This document shows positions 6,201 to 60,599 of a stretch of 64,000 nucleotides of DNA, piece by piece (the stretch's first letter is position 1; every line of letters begins with the position of its first letter). Where the stretch lies: NCBI RefSeq assembly GCF_018977255.1, contig NW_024704742.1, forward strand, positions 5,892,001-5,956,000, given 5' to 3'. Source of the stretch: Callorhinchus milii (Eukaryota). The notes below the pieces were generated by a model. It was not told where the DNA came from, did no database searches, and saw only the letters and a list, made by a program, of their open reading frames with translations. The position numbers were made by a program, and so were the translations under genes.

Positions 6201-9200
6201 ACAAAAAAGACCAATCACTTTTAGGTCTAAGTATTTGCAATAAACAAGAACTGGATGGTGAAAAGGACAATTAAAGCAGTGTAATAATGTGATGAGCAGG
6301 AATACACGGATCTGTTTCACGGATTCCAACCTAGGAGGTCATTTGGCTGATTTTATTCGCGTATAAAACCTCCCCCTCTGGAGCTAAATCCCCTGTATTT
6401 AAAAAGGGAATACAGAAACAAACAAAGGAATGTACAATGCTAGAAAAGATCATTTGTCTGGCAAGGTTCATTTGCTAATTACCTTTGGTTGCTCTGAATA
6501 ATGCTCCCAAACCCCACTGTGAGTATTAGACTTAGTGGAGTCCTGTAGCTCAGTGGTTAGAGCACTCTCCTCGCAAGCGAGAGACCTGGGTTCGGTTCCC
6601 AGCAGGATTCCCAAGGATTATTATTATTATTAGGACCAGACCTAACACTGTGAAGCCATAACAGCAAAATACTAGTCCTGTTTGTAAGTGGAATCCAAGA
6701 AGAAAAGGGGACAAATGTAAAGCTGCATCATCAATTTTGTCCTGTTCTTCCCAATATTTGCCCAACATTTTGCCCTGCCCGGGAATCGAACCCAGGTCTC
6801 TTGCTTACGAGGCGAGTGCTCTATCTGCTCTGACCAAATGCATAAAGAGGAATTAGCTTTCTGTCCAATTCACAAATCAAACTTTCCAAAGTACCACCAC
6901 CAACAAAATCCATCATCTTGGTACTTCCAGTAGCTGTAGTAGCTTTGGAAACAGTAAAACATGGCTATCATTGGACTTTCATTCTGATGCTTACCTGTAA
7001 AGTCCTGCTAGGTATGACATTAATTGTGCTGTGATGACATAATGTCACATTTTGTTCCCCAAAACACTCCCACTTGAAATAGGGGTTCAAACGTTCAATA
7101 CTTTCTTTTTTTAAAAAAGTGCTATTTCTGCGTCTGAGTGAAATACAAAAACTTGCGCGTGTAGCAAACATCTTCAGCATGTCGGAGTGCTGAAATAGTT
7201 TCAGTCTCGTACCTCAGTGATCCAAACTTTGAAGGATCTTTGCCATCCTCCTTGCTTCTCCAGGTGCAAATAGGCGTTGAAGAGAATTAGGTAAAAATAT
7301 CGTTCAAGATACTGCAGACTGCGTAGGTGTAAGCGTGCACCATCATCTTGGTTCTTCGCTGATTTTGACTAAAATAAAAATTAGAAAAAGGCCTACATGT
7401 ACAAATATATGTCGCAGAATCAACCATCTTTGTTCTATTCAAACAGGGTAACCAGCCAAAGGACGCAGAAAGATTTCGATGCGAAATCTCACAACGAATG
7501 GAGCGCAGTCTCGAAATCAAAATCAAAACCAGAATACGAAAAGTACAATATTTCAACTCAGACATCGTGTCCCCAAAAGTCACCCTTACAGTTTTTAATC
7601 AGTTGGACAAACAAGACTGCTTGAGAAGGAAGAATTGATCTAGGATAATTTGCAGTCATCTGAATGATCCACAATCTGACCAATACTTGGCATAGAATCT
7701 TTGACAGGATACTGTGGGAAGCCATCCTATCCACTTTGCCTGTGCTGGAGCTCGCTTCCCCCTCTTGTGCAACCTACTTAAATACTCTTCCCTTGGTTTT
7801 CCGCCATATCCTTGATGTTATGACTGATCACATATTTGACTCCCACTCACATGTGTAGTCTGTTGACCCGACATTCTGGAGTCTGCTGTGAACGTTTTGT
7901 GAAGTGACTAACCAATGTGGAAATTCCAGTTTCTCTGCAGTTCGCTTTTCCTGGCTTCTTTCAACAGCACAATCCTGGTGCCGAGTAAGCCTGGTACCCG
8001 GCATTGGGCTTGGACCTCGACAACATCAAGATGGTTGATGTGTTACAAGCTATTCTGTAAATGTCCGCCTATCACACTGAAAGGCAAATGCCCGGCAGAT
8101 AGCTGATGAGAAAAACTCTGAGTCTTGGGGCGACAGCTGCTGGAAGGAGTTTGTACATCCAGCACCTTGATTTCATCTTGATTGGTTTGCAGAGAGGTAA
8201 ACAGGTGCTGCTCGAGCTCCACTGGTGGAATCATCGCTCAATCGGAAGGGATGTGTATCTGCGTTGTGGGCAGAAAGATGGTGGCAATGTTTTCGTGCAC
8301 TTCGTGATGAGCTATGCTCCCCTCCAAGAAGCTCACACAGACTTCCAAGTACTCGCCATCCACCTAGTGAGGGTTCAAACCCGCCCTTGTCAGATGTGGC
8401 ATAAACAACTGGTTACTATTCTCCTTGCAGGGGAGGGAATATGTCACCTTACAGCTGAACTGGCTCTACGGGTGACATGTTTGGCAACGGATTGTCAGAA
8501 GTGAGCCAACCCTCTGTGTTGGTCTTGATTGTCTGGTTCCTGAGCCAAATGGGTCTGCAATGCTGACGACAGTCCGGGTAGCCTGGCTCATTGGAAGGAC
8601 TTGGAAGGGCAAACCAGTCACTGGGAGGAAGGATTCTTCCCACCCAGCTCCTGTTAACCTCGCAAGCCAAAGCCTAGCGGTGGTCCTAGCTCGAAATGTA
8701 GTGGGAAAACTTGCCAGGAAGTGTTTTGAATGGCAAACAATTTATTTTTGTCTGGTTAGATTCCAGCAGTACCCCAACACAGATTCTGGGATCCCCAAAG
8801 CTTGGCCCTTGCCAACTGTGCCTAATGCTCTCTGGAATTAAATAAGGAGGATGTGTCTCTCCAGGGCATAGGTGGGATGCATGAAATTCTCAGTTTGGTT
8901 TGGATACTGTTAAGCATGGTGATAGGTTGTCGCATTTGTCAGGAACCTAGGTGACCAAAAAAAACGAGACCATAATAGATTACAAACCTCTGGTAAATGA
9001 GAACTTTCCTCCCCCCACCCTCCATTGATAAAGAAACCATCCAACTCGCACCTACATTTTTTGTTCTTATTACAAATCCACAGCCTCTGGATTTCCAGTT
9101 GACTAACGTAATATTATTATTCCCCAATAATTGTTTGTGGTGCATTTCTAACATTTTTCCAACACTTCTATCTTGATGACCCTGATTCCGCTAATCCATT

Positions 9201-15200: not shown

Positions 15201-18200
15201 GACTATCCTCCTGGAAGGCCAGGGCAGGAAAATGGAGCTTTGGAGCTGAACTGGCTTCATGATGATGTGTTTGGCAATGGAATGTCAGAGTCAAGTTGTA
15301 CCTCTGTGGTGGTCTCGGTGACACCGTTCCTGAGCCAAACAGGTCTGCAGTATTCCAGGGCACTGTTGATGACAGATCAATACTTGGAGGGGCAGACCAG
15401 TCCCATTCACCTGTTAACCCTGCGAGCTAAAGCCCTAAAGGATAGAGCTACAACCTGTCCTACACGTTCCTCATGGAAAGAGAAGCCAGCCTGCTCCTTC
15501 TTGATCAAATGTGATCAAAAGCAAGCCTCCAATGCGTGTGATACATGTACAGTGTCTACCAGAAACACCACTTTAAGAGCCACTGAAATCAGCGAGATCC
15601 ATCTGTAGTTATCGGTCTCTCTAGGGTCACTATTCTTGTGCATAGACACCACAATTGCATCCTGGAACACTGATGGGATCCGTGCCTCAGAGAGAGTCCT
15701 GTTGACCAGCACAAGGAGGGTGGCTCTAAGGCGAGTTGGGGGTTCCTGGCTTGGACCTGTAACATCCTCACCATTCTCCATCTCCTTCCTCAGAGCAGTT
15801 TTTAGGAACTAATCATTGATACCGTCCGCACCAGCTGCCTTGCCATTGGTGCCGGAGTCTGGAATCCACCTCCTACCATCGGACCTGGAAAGGAGGAAAG
15901 CACTTACCTGAGGGATAGTTTGTGCTGGCGTTGATCAAAGAATTTTGTGCCTGGAAATAAAATTGCATTACCTCCAGCTGTTCCACAGTTGCCGCAGGAA
16001 TGATCGTCTCCTGCTGGAGGTTGGCAACATCCCTGAGTGAGTACATTTGTTCATCTGCTGCCAGCACAGCTTCCTCTCGCAGGTTCACACACAACACACT
16101 GGTAAACTTTCTCTTATCATCCGTCAGGTAGGACAGTAACTGCGCCAGTCCCTGTAATCAGACCATCCTGGAGTTTTCCAAATCATACTTTATCCTGATA
16201 GTTGATTATATAATAATAATAATCCTTGAATTTGATACAGCGCTTTATCGCGTATTCGAGACTTCTCAAAGTGCTTCACAGAACATACTGTGAAGTGAAT
16301 TGACTGTATATTTTGTGGGGCGAAACGCAGCAGTCAATTGCGCACAGCAGCGTCCCACAAACAGTTGTGGACTGAAGTGACCAATTTTTTTTTGAAGGAA
16401 TTATTGCCCCCGGAAAAGGGATCCGCCAATCGACTAACAACTGGGTTCCTACTTCCTGCTAGATTAACGGAGGCATGTGGAGTAAGGAAACTTGCCCAAT
16501 GCTTTGCCCTGCCAGGGAATCGATCCCTTGGTCTCAGTTGCGAGCAGTGCTCTAACCACTGAGCTACAGGACTCCACTGTTTATGTTGTTACAGCTCCTT
16601 CGATTAATCTGCACACATTCCAGATACACAAACATCTAGAATATGTACCTGTGCAGCACACTGCACATGGCAAGACAACCAGCATCAATGCGTTCAAGTT
16701 GTCTCCATCTTAAAGCAAACCAAGTGAGACCCATAGTACTTTGAGTGCTGGGATCAACAACAACTTCCATTTATATAGTGCCCCTCATGCAGGGTAGCGT
16801 CCCAGAGTGTCATAATCTGACTGCTGACCTCTGTGCTGGGCTGGGCTATTCCACACACTGGCATTTTGGAAACTTTTCTGAAGTTTGACACTTTCATCTG
16901 TCTCTGGGAGCTCATTTCATCAAGATCCAGGTAATCATCAGCAACCTGTAGGTTGCAAGCAAAGGTATAATTTATAACAATAATAATCCTTGCATTTGAC
17001 ATAGCGCTTTTCACGTCTTCGAGAGTCTCAAAGCGCTTCACAGAATATACTGTAAAGTGAATATATTTGTGGGCGAAATGCAGCAGCCAATTGCACACAG
17101 CAGCGTCCCACAAACAGTCGTGGATTGAAGTGACCAAATTATTATTGTTTTTTTTTCTTGAGGGATTATTATCAGGCGTGTGGAGTAAGGAAACTTGCCC
17201 AAGGTTTCACCCTGCCGGGAATTGAATCCGGGTATCTCGCTTGCGAGGCGAGTGCTCTAACCACTGAGCTACAGAACTCATAAACTGTAGTAGCACAGAA
17301 ACAGCCCATTCAGTTCATCATGAAAATCCTGGTGTTTTTCTCCAAATTAGCCACCTGGTCTAATACCACTTTTCCACTCATTTCTCTTTTTCTTTTCAAG
17401 CACTTAATTCCTTTTCAAAAGAATAGGAATAGGAACATTGGAACAAGAGTAGGCCATTCAGCCCCTCGAGCCTGTTCCCGTCATTCTCTAAGATCATGTC
17501 TGATCTGTACCTCAACCCACCCTTTCCCCATATCCCTTGACATCTGTGAATTCAACTGTGGTTCACAGCAGAAAATTCCGAGTCCAACCACTCGGTTTGT
17601 TAAAAATATTTTCTTCCCTCTCCCTTAAGTCTTCCAGTAATTACTTAAATTTGTTTCCTTGTTACTGGCTCACTGACCAGTGGAAATACCCTCTCGTTAC
17701 TGGCAAAGAGAAATCTACTGGCAATCTAAACTGCTGCTATCAAATGGAGTTCCACTACAAGACTGCAGATTTCAATGAAAAGATGGAATAGCGGTCTTTT
17801 TTACAGACTATCTCGATGTTATTATGTCTTCATTCTTATTATTATGTTCAGAGAATTAAGCATTCTCAATTTTTAAAAAAAGTACAGCAAGAGGCAGGTA
17901 TCCCCACGAGTTGTGAATACATATGTGCAGACAAGCACCAGATTAACAGCTATGCAGAGAAACAGAACGTAAACACAAAGTGAAGGACACCCTGCACTGT
18001 ATTTAAACAGAACCCATGTAGGTCCACGTAAGTGGGCAGTTTGTAGGTATACAGACCATTTGTGTTGAAAATATCTCAGGCTTACTTACTGAATTAGGTG
18101 GACATAAAAACCTACCAGAACACAGAGTTGTTTGCTGATAAGTTTAATGGGTAGTTTCATCTCACTGATGGGAATTTCACACACTTGTCTGTAGAAGAAG

Positions 18201-36249: not shown

Positions 36250-36613
36250 AACAATAATAAAACTTGAATTTGATATAGCACCTTATCACGTCCTCGAGAG
36301 GTCTCAAAGCGCTTCGCAGAATATACTGTAAGGTGAATTGACTATATTTTGTGGGCAAAACATGGCAGCCAATTGCACACAGCAGCGTCCCGCAAATATT
36401 CCTGAATTGAAGTGGCCAATTTTTTTAAAAAAGGAATTATTACCCCCAGAAAAGCGATCCGCCAATTGATTAACAACCGGGTTTCCTGCTTACTGCTAGG
36501 TAAACAGGCGTGTGGAGTGAGGAAACTTTCACCAACGTTTCGCCCTGCTGGGAATCGAATCCAGGTCTCTCGCTTGCGAGGCGAGTGCTCGAACCACTGA
36601 GCTACAAGACTCC
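36250..36613 (-). mobile_element. tRNA-derived SINE, full length
   Basis: Family consensus. Confidence 0.88.
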
Positions 36614-40996: not shown

Positions 40997-42756
40997 TCAC
41001 TCCTGGCTTTTTGCTGCTTCCTCAAGATAGTATACGTTCACTAAATGGCGATTAAGGTGCTTGGTATAGTCTCCTTTCTCACTGAATACCCGATCACAGA
41101 ATATACAGACAAAACTCTCTGGAGCATTAATCACACCTTCATCAAGTGTTCTTTTCCTGATCTTGTCACCTGCAGTGGATTTTGCTCCATTCAAACCAGA
41201 GTCATCACTTCCTTCTGAAACATCATCACTAATATCACTACCATCATGGCTGTGAATGCCTTCATCTTCATCTATTTCCATTGTGTCTTCCTTGCCTTGG
41301 TCCTTGTCATTCTTGGCTTGGTCCTTTTCCTGTTTTTTGTTATCTTCATCCTTGCCTTTATCATCCTGGAAGTTATTTGGACTTTTTGATCGAGAGGGCT
41401 CCGAAATCAGTTCAGTATCACTCACCTGAGAAGATCTTGCTTGTTCAACAACAGATGCGACGCCAATTTCGCCATCCACCTCCACTGCATCTGAATATTT
41501 TAGGTCTTCACAGATCGCCAGTGAAATCGGACACTCTGCTTTCTCTAAGCTACCATCCGGTACCTCAGTTTGTTGTTCTATGCATGTTTTAGCAGTTTTT
41601 CCTACACAAGGCAACTTCTCAAGTTTGTTTGCAACCTTGTGAGTTGTTTGTTCCTCAGATTCAGAACTCATTACCTGGTCGGAAGATCTCTGGGTCTCGC
41701 CCATTCCGATTGGCACTATTGGCACCGCAAAGGATGTTTCTGGAGACCTCAACACCAGAGGATTTTCATTTTGTTCAACAGCTTCAACCTGACTTTCACC
41801 GATCACAGCATTTGTGAAGGCTTCTGAAGTCAGGTTTTGACTTCTGCCCACATCCTCAGAAGGCACACGACGTGAAGATTTTCTGGAACACTCCTCCTTT
41901 CTCTGCAAATCCACAGTTGGTTGTTCCTCTGCGTGGTTACATTTCGTATCCTCATTCGAACTACAACCAGCAGAAAGTACAATCGTGTCCTTAATTTTTT
42001 TGTTTTTCTTGTCTTTCTTCTTCTTTTGTTTGGTTTTAAGGTACTTATTGTTTGAGGGTTTCAACTCAATTTTCCCCCGCTGTTTTTCTGGGTCAGCTAA
42101 TTCTTTCGCTTTCTGAATTTTCTTCCTTTTTATTTTTGTACGAGTCTCATTTGCTGGTTCCAGCAGTGAGCTCGACGCCATCACTGTTGAGCATCTCCTT
42201 CTTTTGCCACTTTTGAATTTTACTAATTTTTCCACGTCATTTTCCCTTTTTCTTTTTAAAACTTTGCCATTTAAAACATAATTTCGGGTTTTCATCCTCC
42301 AACTCTTCAAGCTTTTCTCTTTTGAAGCGGGCGTATTTTTTTCAACCTTGGTAGTAATTTTGTCAGCTAGAGTTTCACTTACTTTCAGTGGCTGCTTTTC
42401 TGACATTTTCTTGCTCACTTTGGCACAAGGGATGTCATTTTCAAGTCGTTTGGTGCGTAGTTTAACCTTGGACACATCCATGGTAATATCACTGCTATGA
42501 GGGTGCTTGGACTTTATATGATACTGCAAGTTGCATTTTTTGGAAGCTGCGTATTTACAGACAGGACACAAAAATTGACGTGGATTGACGTGGAGCTCAA
42601 CATGCTTTTTGAAGTTGCTTCGGTCAGCTGTTCTGTATTCACAGTGAGGGCAAGTTAACGGTTTGGGTCCATTGTGAACTTGTCTGGCATGCCGAGTCAC
42701 TTCATGCTGGTTTGACGCAACATAGTTGCATTGATCACATTTAAATGGTTTCTCAC
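40997..42756 (-). CDS. REST: REST last coding exon (ZF6-8, Lys-rich region, degron, ZF9)
   Basis: aatag acceptor, reading [20 protein letters not shown] into ORF 40997..42700. Confidence 0.96.
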
Positions 42757-45700
42757 CTATTAAAAATATATGAATAGAAAATGCTTAATTACTGTACAAT
42801 ATGCCACATAAAATGTCCATTGATCTACCAGACAGTTACACAAATGGCCTAGTGCTCCTAATTCACTCTCTAAAAAAATAAATTCAAGTGTATTACTGCA
42901 TTTTCCTTGCTTTAGTTTACTATACATTGCAGCTTAAGTATGTACCATAAGAACCTTCATTGTAGTCGATATGCTGGTGTGGAATCTGGTTACACCACAT
43001 GAGGCTCTGAAGTTGGAAATTGTTTTTTTTTAAAAAGTTGTGTACATGCATGCATGCAAGGTCCAGGACTGTAATTTAAATGGAGAACTTACCAACAGCA
43101 TGAAAAACAGATCCCACCCAGCAGAAAAGTGGAGGACACAGGAGACAGACAACAACAACTTGCATTTATACAGTGCCCTTCACATGGGGCAGTGTCTCGG
43201 AGCGCTTGTCAGACAGACACACACACACACACAGATACAGTTAGAGAAGCAGAGAGAGACAAACACATACGCACAAATATAGAAACAAACAGAGACCCAT
43301 GAAATACCTCACAGGTGTGTGATTTTACTTTTACTACAGGTTTTCTGTTCTAGAAATTGACCCCATTTTTATGCCCATACTAAGATATTACAGAATTTCA
43401 AGATAAAATGGGAGAATAATGTGAAACTACATAAGAGAATAAAACTTACAAGACTCCGCTGGTAACAGGAATAAAAAGCTGTCTACACATGTTGTCCAAC
43501 TCACACTGAAACACACATACTATTTCACTGGCAATACACATAATATATATCGATTGATCATCATTACATCACGATGCACGGAGGGAAGAAAATTAAATAT
43601 CAGTCAGTGTCTCTCACAGCAATACAATGGGGTCACTGAAGTTAAAGTTTATAAAAATATTACACTTTTTTTAAATGTATGTCTGCACAATTAAAATTTG
43701 TCTGCCAGACCCCTGTTAAAAATACATCGAAAAGGATTTATTTTAAATGAAAAGAACGATAGATGGAGCTCAATTTTTTCACGTGCTATTTGCTGTCCAG
43801 TTACTACTGGTCCTTAATTTTTAAGTGGTTGCAAAATATTTTAGCATGTTACTGCTCTAAAGTATCTCTTAAGTTTAGATTCAGTGGTGGGGGGGGTGGG
43901 GGGGAGGGGGAAGACCAACACATGTATTTTTTTTAAATCACCACTGCCTCCAGGCACCAAAGTGGTCACTTTTCACAGTAAGTGTCAGCACCTGGTATAC
44001 GACCATGAAGGAACATCTTACTCCAGCCTGACATCCCACACAGACCTCCTAAAGGAAGTCACTCAATGACAATCAAGTAAACCTTGGATGATTTTGCCCA
44101 CTTCCAAACCCAGGGAGTTGTGAGTTATTCCAGCTCCCCTGAAGGTATCCCGATTCAATCATCTAATGCAGCTCAAAGGCATGAATGAATGTGGGATTTT
44201 GCAGGATTGGTTAGTTCACTTACACATTGGGCATTCTGGACTGAGACATATTATCGGAGCTGCTCCTATAATTCTTCCACTCCCTTCCCCCTCCTCGCCT
44301 CAGGGTATTCATATGTCAGTTGGACCCACCAGATTCAAACCAACCAGGTCGCTTGGAATATTTGAATCACTTATTAATTGTGTGCATGTGCCTTTTTCTT
44401 TACAAAAAAAGTTTTTGTACTCTTTAGCATTACTATCTCATATTCAAACTGCCATCCATACTTAAAATATAACAAATTTTACATTAGTGTAATACACTTG
44501 CTGTTAAATTGATCTTTGTATGTTGGATATTCTGATATCTGGTTGCATATGAAAATCTGACAGTTTAAAAAACATACCATGCCAGATAATCATTATTATA
44601 AACTAAATACTGATACCTACCGATACTGACCAGAAAACACTTGCCATAACAGTATGGAATCATAAGACATCTGGTCCAATGAAGGCATTGTAGAAAAATG
44701 GAAATCAATATTTTATGAATAGTAGCCTTAAGCACTCGAGTCAGACAAACATCAAATACACATAATACAAAAAAGGTCTACCTTTTCTCTTCATTATGAC
44801 ATTGCTACAAATTTAACCATAATGGGCACGAGGCCAATAATCTTACACAGAAACATTAACTCAAATATTTATGTAAAGGTCACCCAAATCAGAGATATTA
44901 GTGCAAATCAGACAATTATTAACTAAGAGAAAGTAACTCATGAAGGTTTCAGCTGGATGAACCTTGGTGCTTTGATACAGCTTCACACCATAACGGATGA
45001 CATACTCACCAGTCCGGTACCAATCAGAACATATTTTGCTCTGAGCTGTAGGACATAGACAGGCTGGTGAAGTGGGCAGACACATGGCAGATGGAATTTA
45101 ATGTAGAGAAGTGGGAACTGACGCATTTTGGGAGGAGGAATGAGGAGAGGCAATATAAATGGTACAATTTTAAAGGGTGTGCAGGAACAGAGAGATCTGG
45201 GGGTTCACATACACAAATCTTTGAAGGTGGCAGGACAAGTTGACAAAGCTGTTAAAAAAAAGCATATGGGATCCTTGGCTTTATAAATAGAGGCATGGTG
45301 TATAAGAGCAAGGAGGTTATGTTTAACCTTTACAGATCGCTGGTTCGGCCTCAGCTGGAATATTGCGTCAAATTCTGGGCACTGCACTTCAAGAAGGATG
45401 TCAGGACCTTGGAGAGGGTGCAGAGGAGATTTGCAAGAATGATACCAGAGATGAGGGACTACAATTACGTGGAGAGACTTGAGAGACTGGCATTATTCCT
45501 CTTAGAGTAGAGAAGGTTGAGGGGAGATATAATAGGGGTTTCCAAAATTATGAGGGGTTTTGATAGAATAGATAGAAGAAACTGTTCCCTCTGGCAGGTG
45601 GGTGGGTAAACAGAGGACACAGATTTAAGATAATTGGCAAAAGAACCAGAGGGGAGACAAGGAAACTTTGTTTTTTAACCCATAGTTGTTATGGTCTGGA

Positions 45701-48700
45701 ATGCACTGCCTGAAAGGCTGGTGAAAGCAGATTTGATAATAACTTTCAAAAGGGTACTGGATGGGCACTTACAAAAGAAAAAGGGTTATGGAGTAAGAAC
45801 GGGGGAGTGGTACTAGTTGATAGCTCTTTCAAAGATGATTAAATAAAGGCCCAGTGCTGGTTCACTACTGTGGAGGGAACGAGGGACAAACAGGAGGCTA
45901 GAGCCAGCCAAGAGCAGGCAGTGGGTGGTGGGGGGGGTCGGAGAGGAAAGTGAAGGTAAGTTGAGGTGGATAATGAAAAAAGTATGAGGTGTTGGGTGGT
46001 GAGCTCAGTGAGGGGGAAGGTGTATTCAAACGTAAGACAGTTTCAATGACACAGAGAATGTCGATGTTTTAATCTAGGATGAGGTTGTGGATGGTGAGAC
46101 AGCTTTTATTAGAAAGAGTGGACATGTTGGAGAGCGATGTGGAAGAGACTTAAGAGTGTCCTGGAGAGTTGATAGCAGGGTGGGGATGTGAATGAGCAAA
46201 GAGATGTTCACTTCTGAGGGATGGGACCAGTGGGTCTGGCTGAAAAGCTATACCTTCAACTGTAGGCTCATTGTAAATTATCAACTTTAAATTATGATCT
46301 GAAATGCCAACAATGCAGCCAAGTGAAAGACAGAAAATATCAATATTAATTCAATATAATTCAATCACAATCACGGTGAGGCAGAGGGAGGATCGTCCAT
46401 GCCACCGCATCCCCATCCATCTGTGCTTCACAAATCACTCTGAGGCTAAAAGGGGAATTTTGAAAATACGTCTGTAAAAAAGGCTTTAAAATGCTCTATT
46501 CGGGCAAATAATAATTTTCTACTAATAAGAAGAATTCTTGCATTGGGAATAGTGCCTTTCGCGTGGGGAAAGAACGTCCCAAATTGAGTGACTGTGCATT
46601 TGTGGGTGAAAGCGACAGACAATTTTGTGCACCACATTTTCCATAAACAGGTATAAAATAAATGAACAATTTTATTTGGGGGATTGTTGGCCAGGAGACC
46701 AGGAGACACCCCATTCTCTTTTTGAATAGTGCCATGGGATCTTTAATGTCCAGCTGAACAGGAAAACGGGACATCGGTTTAACGTCTCATCCAAAGAACA
46801 GATGTGTTTATAACATTGCCCTACGCTATTTATGGCAGGAAGGATTTCATTCGTCCCTGCACAAAGCAGGGACACTGCTGTGCGTAATTGGCAGCTGCGC
46901 TTTGCCCACAAATATACAGTCAATTCACTTTACAGAATATTCTGTGAAGCGCTTTGAAACGTCTCGAAAATGTAATAAGGCGCTATATCAAATGCAAGGA
47001 TTATTATTATTTTCCATTCTAGGTCTACTTTCAAGTGTTGCATTACATGAGTCAAAATCACTGAAAAAGTAACTTTTCTCATGGAAATTTAACACAACTA
47101 GCAACATTATTGAAGCATATTATTGTATCGGAAAATAAGCATTGTGAGGTTCTACTGTAAAGCAACTTCTATAACATTAACATGACTCTTTCACCTCCCT
47201 TAATACTGATAATACCAACCTGAATGTGTGCGCATATGCCTTGTCAGATGAGTTTTCTGTGAACTTGAGTAAGGGCACTGAGGGCATTGGTAAGGCCGTT
47301 CACCTGTGAAGTACAATTACAATATTGAAAAGTATTACATTTAAGAAGGTGGAAAGTTCAATTATTCTACATCAAACTGAATATTTTGAAGCACATTTTG
47401 GCAGTTGTACCACTATAAGTTTGGACTAATAGTGGCACCATGAGTTCTTCAAGCAATCCTTCAAGTGGAGTCCTGTAGCTTAGTGGTTAGAGCACAAGTC
47501 TCGCAAGCGAGAGGACCTGGGTTCGATTCCCACCCAGGGTGAAACGTTGGCCAAATTTCCTTACTCCATATGCCTCTGTTCACCTAGCAGTAAGTAGGAA
47601 CCTGGTTGTTAGTTGATTGGTGGATTGCTTTTCCGGGGTTAATAATCCTTTCAGAAAAATAAAAATAATGATAATAATTTGGTCACTCAACTCATGACTG
47701 CGGGACACTGCTGTACACAATTGGCTGCTGCATTTCGCCCACAAAATATACAGTTAATTCACTGTTCAGTATATTCTATGAAGCGCTTTGAGACGTCTCG
47801 AAGACATGATGTGCTATACCAAATGCAAAGATTATTATTATTATAGTTCTGCTCATTCTCTTCCGTTAGCTGTGCTAAATTCTTATCAAATAGCGGTTAT
47901 TGAATTGCATTTGAAAAAGTACCTATCACATCAAAACGTCACAAAGTACTTCACAGTTTTCTGTAAAGTCCAGTGAGATATGTGTAGGCAAACACAGCAG
48001 CCAATTTTCACATAGAATTGCACCAGTCACCAGGAGGCGAATGACGAATTTAACTGGAGGACATCAGCAGAAACGCCCCTCTCTTTTTGAACAGTATCAG
48101 GTATTCTTTAACGTCCACACAAGCAGGCACATGGAACTAACAACTCATCCGATAGACGACACCTCTGGCAATGCAATAGTCGTCAGGAACGGGATTGGAG
48201 TTTGGATCAATGATCTGGAGACAGGAGTACAACCAACTGAGCCAGCCTGACACCTAGATTTGGATCCACAAGCGGCCAGAGTGGGGTGGGGGGGGCACAG
48301 GGCTGGCGGGTTGGTCTGGGAGGGAGAGTCGTGGCTCGCAAGACAAGGGAGGTGGGGGCGGTAGCCCGTAAGATAGCCAGGGCACGGATCCCCTGGGGCG
48401 GGGGCACAGATGTGAGTTTTAAGGACCGTGAGATTTAAACAAGATACCGAGGTTCCGCAGAGGCTGTGCGAGGTGAAGTGACGCCCATGCAGCTTGATGC
48501 TGTCAGCGCCCGAGGTGAGAAAGTCCTGACCGGAGCCAAGCGGGAGAGCCTTTGTCTCGTCAATATTCAACAGGAGAAAGTTATCCAGAAGATTAAAATA
48601 TTGCGTCAAGTGAGATATTGGAGGAGAAGAATTGGTAGGCAAGGTTATCAAAGGATTTGGTGAAAAGGAGCAGGGAAATCCTTGCATTTGACATAGCATT

Positions 48701-51700: not shown

Positions 51701-52629
51701 CGCCCTCCACGCCGGACGGCATCTCAGAGCGCTTCAAATTGCCTTCATCCGAATCAACCAAACAATCTCATACCTGTATGTGTTCTCATGTGTTGCACGT
51801 AATTGTTTTTCCGATCAGAGAAATAGGAGCACTGCGAACATGTGTAAACCTTCCGAGGAAAATGGTTCCGCAGATGTTTTTTCCAGTGGTATTCACTGAC
51901 TGTAGTGTATGTGCAGATGGTGCATTTATAAACTCTCTCATTATCTCCAACTTTTTCATGGTGCTTTAGATGTGCCAGATAATGATCGTATCGGTTGGTG
52001 TTATATCCACACCTATCGCAGCGAATAGGCCCTTTAGAAATGTCAATCTCTTCAGAATCAACAGTTACAACTTTGGATTTGTTTTTCTTTTCTGCATTTT
52101 CTTCCACAATGAATTTTTTGGCACTATGTACTTTGATGTGATGCACAAACTGCTCTTCAGACTCTGCTTCGTACTGACAGGGCCGGCAACGAAACGGTTT
52201 GGACTTTTTTCCTTTATCAACCGAGCACTCTGGTGTCACGACTTCTGATGAATTAATATTTGAGTCACAAATGTTCTGAGAAACAGTCAAAGATTCATCT
52301 TTATTTTCATTTCTTGGCATGGCTTGGTTTTCCGTGTTTCGCCTCTCAGATTGTAAAACATCAGGCAGATCAGCTCCCAATTCTTCTCCGTTGTCTGATA
52401 AAGTATCATCTACAGTTTTCAGTTCAGCCATCAGACGGTCCTCCTGACAATCGTAGCACCCAATGTCACCAGTTAAAGCAACGTTTGCTAACATAACTAG
52501 CTGTGGCGCTGCTGACAGGTCACCCTTGGAGAGGTAATTGAGGCCACAAATCTCGTTTGATGATACTCCAATGTTTGAGGCAGAAAACATACTGGTTCCA
52601 CTGGACTGTTCCAGGACTTGTGCAGCCAT
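40997..52629 (-). CDS. REST: RE1-silencing transcription factor (REST/NRSF), 3 coding exons, 899 aa
   Basis: join(51774-52629, 47220-47303, 40997-42756) = 2700 nt; Sin3-binding motif [12 protein letters not shown], 8 clustered C2H2 fingers, Lys-rich region, EGIHS/DSG degron and C-terminal CIFC...HLNRH finger. Confidence 0.97.
44621..44670 (-). other. REST: candidate alternative neural exon N of REST (50 nt, introduces a premature stop; REST4-like)
   Basis: Pyrimidine tract, TGC at -17..-15, ggaccag acceptor, TCG|gtaggt donor; in frame it reads D-V-L-stop. Confidence 0.6.
45065..45835 (+). mobile_element. CR1-type LINE 3' fragment in REST intron 3
   Basis: [10 protein letters not shown]...[17 protein letters not shown]...LERVQRRF. 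Confidence 0.88.
47220..47303 (-). CDS. REST: REST 84-nt exon encoding ZF5 ([28 protein letters not shown])
   Basis: cacag/gttggt, phase 1-1. Confidence 0.96.
47467..47843 (+). mobile_element. tRNA-derived SINE, full length, in REST intron
   Basis: Family consensus. Confidence 0.88.
49020..49625 (-). mobile_element. degenerate CR1-type LINE fragment
   Basis: [11 protein letters not shown] and [15 protein letters not shown] remnants. Confidence 0.65.
51774..52629 (-). CDS. REST: REST first coding exon (N-terminal repressor domain, ZF1-4)
   Basis: Acceptor cttcag at 52640/52641, exon begins 10 nt before the ATG; donor G|gtatga. Confidence 0.96.
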
Positions 52630-52689: not shown

Positions 52690-53079
52690 AATATTCATGG
52701 ACGCCATCCGCGACAAAATAATGAAATCGTCTCGGCGTTAGCAATATTTACCAGGATTTGACACCCCGGTTAAGCCGAGCGCAGCGTCTGTGAAAGCTCT
52801 GGATCTCAAACTTCCAGCTCAACGTTTGCGTCAGTCAGTGTCTGCCGTCACCGCCGTTTCCGCATGGCACCGAGACTGACAAGAAGGAAGGGAGCGCTTT
52901 GAAATTCACCTGAAAAATAAAAGACAACGGCGCAATCACATTTTTTTGCTTTGAGAAAGCGGATTAACGCCCGGGGACATATTATAAATTGCGCGTAAAC
53001 GGGACGGGGGGGGGGAAGGGAGGGGGTGGTGGCTTGAACCTCGCCACCTCGGGCGGGGTTTTTTTTTCTTTTTGGGTGT

Positions 53080-53116
<37 letters not shown>

Positions 53117-54060
53117 GAGGGTGTGGGGTGTGTGGGGAGGAAGATATTCCTGGTGAAAAGTTCCAAACATTTACAGGAGTTCCCAAGAAGAAATGTGCTT
53201 GCAGCCATTTTACTGAAATACCGAAGTGCTGCCCTTTGCTGCAGGATCTGCGTTGAGAGCGCAGAAGAGGGGGAAGAGAGGGGGAGAGGAGGGGGGAGAG
53301 GAGGGGGAGAAAGTTACCCGTTCTCACCCGAAGCGAACACCCAAAACTTTTTTTTTAAAACTTCTTTAAAACGGTTTGGTCCTGGAGAGGGGGAGAGGGG
53401 GAGGGAGAGGGGGGGAGGGAGGGCGCAGGGCTCTGGCACTGACTGATGTGGTTTGGTCACTGTTTGTTGTTGACTTCCCCCCTTCTCTGTCGCTTCGAAC
53501 TCCTTCACTTCCCGCTGTGGGGGAATTTGCAGTGAAAAACCATTTTGTGGCTCGGGCCCGAGGGGGACCCACGGCCGAGGCTCGCGGGCCGGGCCGGGCC
53601 GAGCCGCACGACTCTCCCACACCCCCCGCCCCTACCCCACCAACCCACCCCACCCCACCCCACGCCCCGTGTCCCCAGCCGCAAGGTCAGAGCCCGGGGT
53701 CCCCGGCCCAGCCCGGGCCCGGCCCACAGCCCCGGCACAGAGCGGCGGCCTCGCCTCGGCTCGGCTCTCCTCACCCGCTGAAGCTGCCCGAGGCCGCCGC
53801 GCCGCCGCCGCCCCGCTCAGGCCTCGATGAGAGCGCGAGCTCAGGGCTCACATTCCAGCACAGACTGACTGACACTCCGCCGCCGCCGCTGTGCTGTACT
53901 GTACCGCCCTCACAACATGTCTGTCTGTCTGTCTGTCTGTCTCTCACGCACTCACACTGACTGGGCCGTCCGCCCAGGGCCCTGCCGTTAGCTCCTCCCT
54001 CTCCCCCCCCGAGCCCCACACGGGGCAGAGACAGTCGAGCTATGTAGCCTCAGGTACATA
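52690..54060. promoter_or_regulatory. CpG island / REST promoter and 5' UTR exons
   Basis: High GC and CpG density directly upstream of the REST ATG exon. Confidence 0.8.
53775..53895 (-). other. REST: candidate REST non-coding first exon
   Basis: GGC repeats followed by CTGTGCTGGAATGTG...GAGCTCGCG; donor CGG|gtgagg at 53775/53774, inside the CpG island. Confidence 0.55.
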
Positions 54061-54159: not shown

Positions 54160-54482
54160 TAATAATAATACTCATAATAATCCTTGCGTTTGACGTAGCG
54201 CTTTTCGCGTCGGGAGGACGTCCCAAAGCGCCTTCACGGAACCCACTGTAAAGACTGTATGTTTGTGGGCGAACGCGGCAGCCGATTGCGCACAGCAGTG
54301 TCCCACAAACAGTCGTGGATTGAAAATGACCAATTTATTATTGTTTTTGGTTTTGGAGGGATTATTATTAGGGCTGTGTGTGGAGTAAGGAAACTTGCCC
54401 AAGGTTTCGCCCTCTGCCCGGAATTGAACTCAGGTCTCTCGGTTGCAAAGCGAGTGCTCTAACCACTGAGCTACAGGACTCC
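54160..54482 (-). mobile_element. tRNA-derived SINE, full length
   Basis: Family consensus. Confidence 0.9.
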
Positions 54483-54679
54483 ACGCTGTGGGCAAGGAAG
54501 GCTTGGATTTTGGCAATGCTCTCACACTCACACACTTTGTGCTTCATTAGCAGGAAGCTCGCAGGGCGTACCTGGTACCTGCCGAGCGAGAGGCCTCAAA
54601 CCTGCGCTTGTGGGATGACAAACGAGCCAACTCCTGACTATTCCTGGGGTGGGGTAAGGTAAGGCAGGGTCTCCTTGGC

Positions 54680-55182
54680 CGCAAGGTACATAGGGGACGT
54701 GCAACTCGCCTTGGAGGGGGTACAGCGTAGATTCACTAGGTTGGTACCAGGGATGAGGGGGATGAGTTATGAGGATAGGTTGAGACATTTAGGCCTATAT
54801 TCTCTAGAATATAGAAGAATGAGGTGTGATCTTATAGAAACCTATAAGATTATTAAGGGGCACGTCAGAATTTTTCCCCTGGTTGGAAACTGTAACCAGG
54901 GGCCACAGTCTTAAAATTAAGGGTAAGCCCTTTCGCACTGAGTTGACGAAAAACTTCTTTACTCAGAGGGTAGTGAATTTATGGAATTCTCTACCCCAAA
55001 GGGCTGTAGATGCTCAGTCCTTGAACATATTCAAGACTGAGATGGATAGATTTCTTGTGGATTAAGGGATTTAGGGATATGGGGATAAGGCGGGTAGGTG
55101 GAGTGAGATCAGCCATGATCTTATTGAATGACGGGGCAGGCTGGAGGGGCCGAATGGCCTACTCCTGCTCCTAATTCTTATG
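54680..55182 (+). mobile_element. CR1-type LINE 3' end
   Basis: LEGVQRRFTRLVPG...TRGHSLKI...FFTQRVVNLWNSLP plus 3' UTR. Confidence 0.88.
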
Positions 55183-57969: not shown

Positions 57970-59480
57970 CTAACGTCCTTCGCGCCCGGACGGCGTCTCG
58001 GAGCCCGGCGATGGCCTCCAGTCGGGCTCCTCGGAGCCAGCCGGGTCCGCAAGCCTTGGCTCTGGCCAACCTGCGGCCAGTCCCCGTCCATAGTCCTTAT
58101 GGAAGCTGCTCATGTGGCTCGAGGGAGATGTCCGCCTCCCCTTCCCTGAGCTAACGCGAGGCCTGGTGCGCATGCCCCCTCTCCCCCGTCACCATGGGCA
58201 ACGGGTACGTCACCAACCGCCCCACCCGGCACGCGGAGGTTTGAATTTTTTTTTGGGGGGGGGGGGGGGGGTTGGCAGCGCGTGCGTGGCCGCGGCCCCT
58301 TGTGTCGCCCTGAGCAACAGCTGCCGCGTGCGTGCGTCAGAGCGTGCGTGCCGCGTGCGCGCGTGCGTGCGAGCGACCACCCCGCATTCGCGCTCTCCAC
58401 CCGCCCCCTTTCAGTTAAGTGACGTGCGAGCTGGAGAGTCGGCGGGTGCGGCTTCGGCCATTGCGCACGCCCAGCGTTCAGTCACGTGACAGGCAACGTC
58501 TCCTTGCCGCCCGCCCGCCCGCCCCGCCAACGCCGCTGTCCGCGTCTGTCACTCCGCGCGGCCCCAACTGACTCGACCGGTTTGACCCGCGGCTGTCAGG
58601 CAGACAGACAATTTTCGGAAGCTGCTTTCAGCCGCCATCTATCTCGTTGTGAAGGTACCTCTTTACTCCACTTACACCGCGTTTGCGTGTGTGTTGTGTG
58701 GAGGTGCGTGACGAGGGTTGATTTGGATTTGGTGAGGAAAGTTCCCCCCCCCCCCCCTCCACCCCCCACACACACACACACGGGCCACACGGCGTCCGCC
58801 GGACCATTGCCGCCTGTTAAATCGGTGTTTTCGCAGCTTTGCCTAAAAAGAAATGGCCTCCACCCACACCCACCCAGACGCTGTCGGGTGATATCCTTCT
58901 CGGGGTGTGGGAGGGAGGAGGCAGTCGTGTCGGTTTTATTGTGTGAAGCGAAGCTGTTGTTTGCTTTATTTTTTAAGAAAACGCAAGCGTGCGGCTTGCG
59001 GAGGCCAGGCCGGGTGTGAGTGCGGGAGGGGGTAGGGGTCGGTGTTTGTTTTGTTTTGCTGTGTGTGTGTGTATGGGGAGAGGGGGTGTATGTGTGCATA
59101 TGATGTGATGACATGTTTTTCAGGCGGTGGGTGATTCGCAGAAAGGTTTTTTTTAGCGACGGGAGGGAGTGGGGGGAGGTGTCAGTGTTTGCGCAGCGCC
59201 CGCTTATGACGTCACTGCGGCGGTTGGGTGGCTGGTCACAAACAGGAGGCGGCGGCGGCGGCGCGAGGGTCTCGCGGTCGGTCGGTCGGCACGAGCGCGA
59301 AGCAAGAAGGGGAACAGAAGGCGGCGGCGGCGGCGCCACCACAGGGTGAGAGGCGTCGGCGTCACAATGGGTGCGCGCCGCGTCACAATCAATGCGTGCG
59401 CGCCGGCCTGGTCGTCGCCCCGCTTGCTCTCCTCCTCTCCCCCTCTCCCCCCCCCCCTCCTTCCCGCGCGTGCGCACTTG
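57970..59480. promoter_or_regulatory. CpG island / SKP1-like promoter with housekeeping motifs
   Basis: CpG-rich; TGCGCATGC (NRF1-like) 58167, GTCACGTGAC palindromic E-box 58481-58490, GCCGCCATCT (YY1-like) ~58631, TGACGTCA CRE 59207-59214; candidate donors at ~58652, ~58730 and 59345. Confidence 0.8.
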
Positions 59481-59519
59481 CCCAAAGGAAAAGGTGGTGG
59501 GGAACATGGGACCAGGAGT

Positions 59520-59930
59520 TGACCTTTCACCCCATCGAGCCAGTTCTGCCATCCTGTAAGGTCATGGCTGATCTGTACCTCAACTCCCAGATGGCTGCCC
59601 TTTTGCCCCCGTATCCCCTCGACACCCCGACCTCACAAATATCTGTCCGCCTCAGCCTTGATGTGACTGGATCCAGCGTCCACAGCCCTTTGGGGGGGAC
59701 AGGGAGGTCCAGATGTACCACTGAGCCTTTGGGTGGTACAACTGCCTCCTGATTTCACTTCTAAATGGCCTGGAAATAGTTTGTCTGAACCTAACCTATC
59801 AAATCCCTTTATTATTTTAAAAACACCTCTGAACCTTCTGAACTCAAGGGAATAGAGACCAAGTTTATGCAATGTGTCCTCATGATTTAACCCTTGAAGC
59901 CCTGGTATCATTCTGGTAATTGCCCTGTGC
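59520..59930 (-). mobile_element. CR1-type LINE 3' fragment in SKP1 intron 1
   Basis: MIPGLQGLNHEDTLHKLGLYSLEFRRFRG. Confidence 0.78.
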
Positions 59931-60599
59931 CCCCTCCTGGGCCAATATATCTTTCCTGCCTTTCACTGCCAGGGGAATCCTGGGTGACAAAATTGCCCTT
60001 AGGGACGAGGGCTGCCGGTAGGAAAATGCTCTTTGTGATTTATTTCTAAGTGCTGCAGTAGGCAAGTGTTGAAGGTGGTGGGGGAGTTGCAGAGCTGGAT
60101 ATTGATTTTTGTTGCTTTATCGTTTTTTTTGCTGTTGATTCCTTGAGCCGCTGGAACTCCCACGAGGGTTTCTGGTGACCTAGGAAAGTTCATTTAAAAG
60201 ATTGCCGAAGCTTCATTTTGTGATTTCTGTCATTTCAGAATGCATAAAAACTCTTCGCAATCTTCAAAATTGCCCTTAATGCACCACGCCCCTTCCCTAC
60301 ATGCTCAACAACGATTTGTTGGGAGGAGATGCAGTTGAGCTGAGCTGGATCATGGTCAAATGTTTTTCTCCCAATAAATTTTATATTTTTCCCTATCCAT
60401 GCCCCTATCCATGCATAAGCTAAGTGGCATGACTTCCAATGAGGTTATGTTCACATTTCTACTGTTGCACCAGAGCCAATTTGTAAACAAAATAAGATAC
60501 TTTAGACAATTGAATTCTTGTGAGGGTGTATATTCCAAATAAGTTGTAGTATGAATGTTTTAGTCTACTCACATTTAATTTTTTTTTACAAAATTTTAG

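Follow-up and report, generated by a model that had tools for sequence, protein, structure and literature searches.

In a 64,000-nt stretch of the Callorhinchus milii genome (contig NW_024704742.1, positions 5,892,001 to 5,956,000; called the window below, with positions counted from its first letter), the intron between the exon for the fifth zinc finger (ZF5 exon, exon 3) and the last exon (exon 4) of the REST gene contains a 50-nt cassette, 44670-44621 on the minus strand, which was found joined to the ZF5 exon in a contig of one sequencing run. With a probability of roughly 0.6, this cassette is a genuine alternative exon of REST in C. milii and acts in the manner of exon N in mammals. Some samples would then hold transcripts in which the ZF5 exon is joined to the cassette rather than to the last exon, and translation would end after ...RTHS-D-V-L at a TGA that is the fourth codon of the cassette. 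The product would be a REST4-like protein of 316 residues with the N-terminal region and ZF1-5, lacking ZF6-9 and the C-terminal repression region. From the donor of the 50-nt form, the cassette would be spliced on to the last exon; alternatively, the following 1.9-kb intron would be retained. The mRNA would be expected to escape nonsense-mediated decay. By analogy with mammals, SRRM3 and SRRM4 might switch inclusion on in neurons and sensory cells.

REST silences neuronal genes outside neurons. In mammals it is inactivated in neurons and hair cells through inclusion of exon N under the control of SRRM3/4, and loss of exon N splicing causes deafness in mouse and man.

Sequence and predicted product of the cassette

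The cassette lies 2549 nt behind the ZF5 exon and 1864 nt ahead of the last exon. Its acceptor reads ...ttgatttccatttttctacaatgccttcattggaccAG/ATGTC (ggaccAG/ATGTC, the slash marking the exon border) with 44670 as the first exon base, and its donor, after 44621, reads TATCG/gtaggt. Further donors are found at +4 (gtatca) and +43 (gtatgt, GT at 44577). These splice sites, the extra donors, the cassette borders and an upstream UGC had been proposed earlier from the letters of the window (the original prediction), and every coordinate holds. A 40-nt donor, CTG/gtcagt with its GT at 44630, is additional to those listed there. A splice-donor matrix, applied solely to rank the 283 GT sites of the intron, placed the 40-, 93- and 50-nt donors at ranks 7, 8 and 9, respectively. 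The cassette stretch occurs once in the window, and nothing marks it as an obvious repeat.

Behind the ZF5 exon, the reading frame continues ...RTHS-D-V-L-TGA, the TGA being the fourth codon of the cassette. Translation of the joined exons gave a truncated product of 316 residues that ends in RTHSDVL and has five C2H2 matches, compared with nine in the 899 residues of full-length REST. The predicted HS-D-V-L-stop and a protein of about 316 residues with ZF1-5 only were thereby reproduced.

Use of the cassette acceptor in RNA contigs

RNA evidence was drawn from the contigs of four of the 14 runs listed (X1, X2 and X3 of study P1 and X6 of study P2) on positions 42400-47400. The 14 runs belong to one coded organism, with none on record as RNA and the tissue coded; the four were chosen by their share of words and so that two studies were spanned. 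Runs X1, X2 and X3 contain spliced RNA, because a joint between exon 3 and exon 4 was present in all three of them (42754->47218, skipping 4463 nt with CT..AC borders, at depths of 24, 51.1 and 23.7, respectively). No joint across the intron was observed in X6, where cover was limited to part of the last exon, and this run is uninformative.

In X1, and in no other of the four runs, exon 3 was also joined to the cassette. The joint 44670->47220 skips 2549 nt and has CT..AC borders on the plus strand, i.e. GT..AG on the gene strand; the predicted junction 47220>44670 is thus present to the base. It was carried by one contig (side 30, both 3, depth 33.5). Measured by contig depth, which is a poor gauge of level, the value of 33.5 compares with 24 for the ZF5-to-last-exon joint of the same run and makes up about 58% of the combined junction depth. 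In X1 the contig of exon 3 stopped precisely at 47220, as it must if a branch lies at that base, whereas contigs of X2 and X3 crossed from exon 3 into exon 4 unbroken, indicating that use of the exon differs among samples of one study. The bin 44571-44737, which contains the cassette, showed depths of 23.4, 18.4, 5.25 and 0 in X1, X2, X3 and X6, respectively. In X2 and X3 the bins beside it had a depth of 0 on one side and of 1.3 and 0 on the other, so that cover in these two runs forms an island on the cassette. Overlapping contigs count twice in the depth of the cassette bin. In vivo use of the 44670 acceptor is very likely.

Splicing behind the cassette

A k=31 graph simulation was run for sets of isoforms. 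When read-through from exon 3 into the cassette was simulated without a junction between the cassette and exon 4, no break occurred in the cassette and the exon 4 contig reached 42758. Addition of the path from exon 3 through the 50-nt cassette to exon 4 yielded a read-through contig starting at 44648 and an exon 4 contig ending at 42757. Run X1 matched the latter simulation, with record 3 extending over 44648-43160 and record 1 ending at 42757; in X2, which lacks the cassette joint, the exon 4 contig ended at 42758. The simulated starts for the 40-, 54- and 93-nt donors were 44658, 44644 and 44605, so that only the 50-nt donor gives 44648, and no use of the other three was seen. The junction contigs obtained in the simulation, 57 and 56 nt long, were consistent with side/both values of 30/3 and 26/4. 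As the two contig ends of X1 match only the path through the 50-nt cassette, they provide good indirect support for its junction with exon 4, and the 50-nt form probably exists.

The intron between the cassette and the last exon was partly kept in X1. Record 3 (1480 nt, depth 20.4) was unbroken over its whole extent and record 2 continued to 42729, while the intron upstream of the cassette had a depth of 0-6.6 outside repeats, indicating that the intron behind the cassette is retained in a large share of X1 RNA. The cassette and the kept-intron forms encode the same protein.

Within 42757-44648, the X1 contigs also showed seven single-letter differences from the window and a 9-nt deletion at 43886, and an insertion of AAA (3 nt) at 43031 was shared by X1 and X2. 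These differences are polymorphisms between animals.

Fate of the truncated transcript

A stop codon is expected to trigger nonsense-mediated decay when it precedes the final exon junction by more than about 50-55 nt. In the 50-nt form the stop lies 39 nt before this junction, which is short of that distance; the corresponding distances are 29, 43 and 82 nt in the 40-, 54- and 93-nt forms. Whether the stop precedes that junction by 39 nt or sits in an unspliced tail, decay of the mRNA is not expected, and a REST4-like truncated protein is the more likely result. The cassette had been predicted to be a poison exon. This description is apt in that an in-frame stop truncates REST, and poison exons coupled to decay are likewise cassettes with an in-frame stop that lower the output of full protein. 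The label is doubtful, however, since the stop is so close to the junction that decay is unlikely; unlike in such poison exons, decay would be expected for the 93-nt form only.

Layout of the acceptor

A candidate branch site, TTGAT, may be placed at 44708-44704 (-38 to -34, with its A at 44705). It is followed by a pyrimidine tract with UCU at 44704-44692 (-34 to -22), and the best upstream 15-nt stretch contains 13 pyrimidines. A UGC at -17 to -15 (44687-44685) precedes a purine-rich stretch and the AG, and the AG-free zone upstream of the acceptor measures 54 nt. For SRRM3/4 targets, the published descriptions place the pyrimidine tract and the branch site far from the AG and give a bipartite UCU...UGC enhancer; an extended distance from branch site to AG has been noted for such targets, and a polypyrimidine-UGC-AG logo was presented for targets of Srrm4 (Nakano 2012). 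The cassette acceptor fits this published layout, with its UGC between the pyrimidine tract and the AG and its candidate distal branch site. A UGC just upstream of the 3' splice site, as in SRRM4 targets, was part of the original prediction, and the motif is indeed in print.

A weak acceptor combining a distal branch site, a UCU tract, a UGC and the AG suggests, by analogy with mammals, that SRRM3/SRRM4 may activate inclusion of the cassette in neurons and sensory cells. The neural microexons controlled by SRRM3/SRRM4 (eMIC) are alike in their distal branch site, UCU tract, UGC, poor AG-proximal stretch and long AG-free zone. They are, however, defined by a length of 3-27 nt, compared with 50 nt for the cassette (40, 54 and 93 nt for its other forms), and they add a few residues, whereas the cassette destroys the frame.

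Comparison with mammalian exon N and other truncated REST proteins

In mammals, REST4 arises when a short exon located between exon 3 and exon 4 of REST is included under SRRM4; the human forms of exon N measure 50 and 62 bp, and REST4 keeps five of eight DNA-binding fingers. The original prediction had given both human lengths and a truncated REST4, and had put the cassette in the position of the mammalian neural exon; the intron is indeed the same one, from the ZF5 exon to the last exon. The cassette resembles mammalian exon N (N3c, exon 4) also in its phase, in the premature stop with retention of five zinc fingers and loss of the C-terminal repression domain, in having more than one donor and length to choose from (50 bp, like the cassette, for one of the human forms) and in a UGC-bearing weak acceptor, which is typical of SRRM4 targets. 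In the comparison with the mammalian exon, the C. milii cassette is marked by a stop inside the exon, at the fourth codon, and by a part of the RNA that keeps the downstream intron.

A truncated REST of about 300 residues is also represented by Xenopus laevis REST-B isoform 2 (P0018). Unlike the product of the cassette, this protein ends after ZF4 (...RTHTGK...), the donor behind the first coding exon being read through. Among amphibian and unnamed proteins, several short forms of REST likewise end in ...RTHTGK plus a few residues, by read-through of the donor after ZF4.

Alternative explanations

A number of observations weigh against an exon of C. milii REST that works like exon N. By its sequence alone the cassette is within chance. 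Of the 229 AG sites of the 4463-nt intron, 2 passed criteria tailored to the candidate, namely 13 or more pyrimidines out of 15, a pyrimidine at -3, a UGC no farther than 35 nt and, at a distance of 10-150 nt, a donor of equal or better quality. The random expectation was 1.0 +/- 1.35 from 300 first-order random sequences of like composition, i.e. about one per intron of such size. The second passing site, 45117-45010, lies within a stretch of very high depth in all four runs. It is the RNA that decides whether the exon is real. There, the direct junction is one contig from one run of one study, the runs were only guessed to be RNA, and contig depth gives the coarse measure mentioned above. 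The joint 44621>42756 was absent among the 15 of 68 joints listed, and a heterozygous site at 44618 combined with a further exon spliced to exon 4 could mimic both contig ends, provided that this further exon has a non-A base before its last G. Furthermore, of the depth of 33.5, about 20.4 continues unspliced into the intron, so the main form in X1 may not be a cassette. No cartilaginous fish had a short REST isoform among 72 protein matches and the best 120 of 2443. Peptide similarity was missing as well: when the mammalian tails after RTHS, VGYGYHLVIFTRV (P0006) and VGCGYHLLIFTRA (P0023), were compared with the three-frame translation of the intron, the cassette took ranks 15 and 21 of 4425 windows. 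The human 12-mer named in the original prediction as resembling the cassette would be compatible with the Y-G-Y-H of these tails. The top peptide match, at 45860, was rejected as a homologue; it falls in a repeated stretch, and its score was reached by 7 and 5 of 200 simulations.

These results bear on an exon gained independently in the chimaera line, perhaps answering to other factors or tissues, whose likeness to exon N would be convergent or coincidental. Such an origin, which we regard as unlikely, would agree with the low ranks of the peptide comparison, with a chance yield of about one such cassette per intron and with the fact that almost any short exon in this intron would be expected to truncate REST. 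It would also agree with the literature within reach, in which the exon is described in human, mouse and rat only (Palm 1999, by its title) and no report from outside the mammals is found, papers under subscription and splicing databases lying beyond that scope. That the mammalian exon N tails themselves differ between orders speaks for an independent gain as well. Dissimilarity after about 450 million years in an exon that is non-coding-like says little. Independent gain would also have to account for the same intron, phase and five-finger product as in mammals, for the same order of branch point, pyrimidine tract, UGC and AG, for the donor cluster and the 50-nt length equal to one human form, and for a use that is high in X1 and differs between samples.

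The kept intron of X1 could be read differently, as the outcome of an upstream alternative acceptor behind which the intron is detained or the transcript has a long alternative end, the 50-nt form being minor or absent. The unbroken record 3, which holds 20.4 of the 33.5 depth units, its continuation in record 2, the nearly empty intron upstream and the missing joint from the cassette to exon 4 are as this explanation would have them. Nevertheless it is improbable, since the ends 44648 and 42757 need a path that leaves from the 50-nt donor and enters exon 4, the leftover depth (33.5 - 20.4) fits such a path, and X2 and X3 cover the exon but nothing in the next intron bin; the encoded protein would be identical either way. 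Splicing noise or an assembly artefact, i.e. a rare cryptic splice or a chimeric contig without a role, might be suspected behind a single contig in one run, as short k-mer contigs can mis-join. This is very improbable, because the joint connects the final base of exon 3 precisely to an AG acceptor, with canonical GT..AG borders, exceeds the constitutive joint of that run in depth and has neighbouring contig ends that fit a branching graph, and because the cassette stretch is unrepeated in the window.

For the preferred reading, an alternative exon that works like exon N, dependence on SRRM3/4, neural specificity, a function of the truncated protein and common descent with the mammalian exon are proposed by analogy. 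That the cassette would be the neural, SRRM3/4-driven counterpart of exon N by descent has slightly less than an even chance.

Gene structure and neighbouring features

The gene is REST of C. milii on the minus strand of the window; the last-exon translation is 100% identical to the species' own UniRef protein (P0073), followed by sharks and rays with 44-56% identity. The original prediction had named the gene and a probable cartilaginous fish, and the species is the elephant shark, a chimaera. The joined model of 899 residues equals P0073 across 864 residues, the difference being confined to the first 35 versus 23 residues. The exon borders agree with the public C. milii model over these 864 residues, and the first coding exon is identical to it from residue 36 onward. 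Positions are given in Table 1.

Table 1. Features of C. milii REST and of the cassette region (window positions)
Feature	Position	Strand	Remarks
REST first coding exon (ZF1-4)	51774..52629	-	open reading frame; ATG at 52629; donor ACAG/gtatga; best protein matches are REST
ZF5 exon, 84 nt	47220..47303	-	weak donor CAG/gttggt, score 2.75; covered by X1-X3 contigs (47220/47218-47307)
Acceptor-side control region	44685..44708	-	candidate branch site, pyrimidine tract with UCU, UGC
50-nt alternative exon ('exon N'-like)	44621..44670	-	in-frame TGA 44662-44660; X1 joint 44670->47220
Alternative donor cluster	44576..44630	-	GT at 44630 (40-nt), 44620 (50-nt), 44616 (54-nt), 44577 (93-nt)
Intron between cassette and last exon, partly kept in X1 RNA	42757..44620	-	X1 records 2 and 3
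Last coding exon (ZF6-9, C-terminal repression region)	40997..42756	-	starts after ...aatag; stop 40997-40999

Protein P0073 opens with 23 residues that are absent from the open reading frame at 52629, indicating that a different first coding exon is used. Upstream of 52629, the stretches 52850-54050 and 58100-59600 are G+C-rich with long Pro/Gly/Arg open reading frames on both strands, and they are probably promoter and 5' exons. The donor of the ZF5 exon (47211-47222) has a T at +3 and a score of 2.75 versus 4.49 for the donor of the first coding exon. A kiwi protein (P0026) continues HS-GWYG..., which hints at the same unusual ZF5 donor context in birds.

Just behind the ZF5 exon, 46557-47156 is a high-copy repeat whose three 200-nt tiles have 5, 24 and 22 other copies. 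Its RNA-contig depth was about 5x10^5 in X1 and X2, and it was the source of many false joints; it is probably a short interspersed element (SINE). The stretch 45157-45956, with a plus-strand open reading frame at 45256-45510, has one other copy in the window and resembles by eye the C-terminal part of the reverse transcriptase of a long interspersed element (LINE). Similar LINE-like open reading frames occur at 54663-54914 and 59633-59962. Rfam and tRNA scans found no RNA family in the REST intron studied. In the window, 11 tRNA-like Rfam matches were obtained (e.g. 6539-6610, 17207-17278, 36540-36611 and 54414-54476), and many of them may be heads of tRNA-derived SINEs.

Significance for REST regulation

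A working counterpart of exon N in a chimaera would mean that the switch-off of REST is old or arose twice, and it would show that REST gene models of cartilaginous fishes miss an isoform. Either way, it would provide a second, very distant example for finding which acceptor features matter. From its position and its consequence, the REST4 switch may date from the jawed-vertebrate ancestor, with a UGC-guided, SRRM3/4-activated truncating exon retained in place behind ZF5 through some 450 million years of drift in its sequence; we put this forward tentatively, with the balance somewhat on the side of doubt. If it were true, the cassette could be the major REST form in some elephant shark tissue, and the mutual antagonism of SRRM4 and REST would be part of the original vertebrate neural programme.

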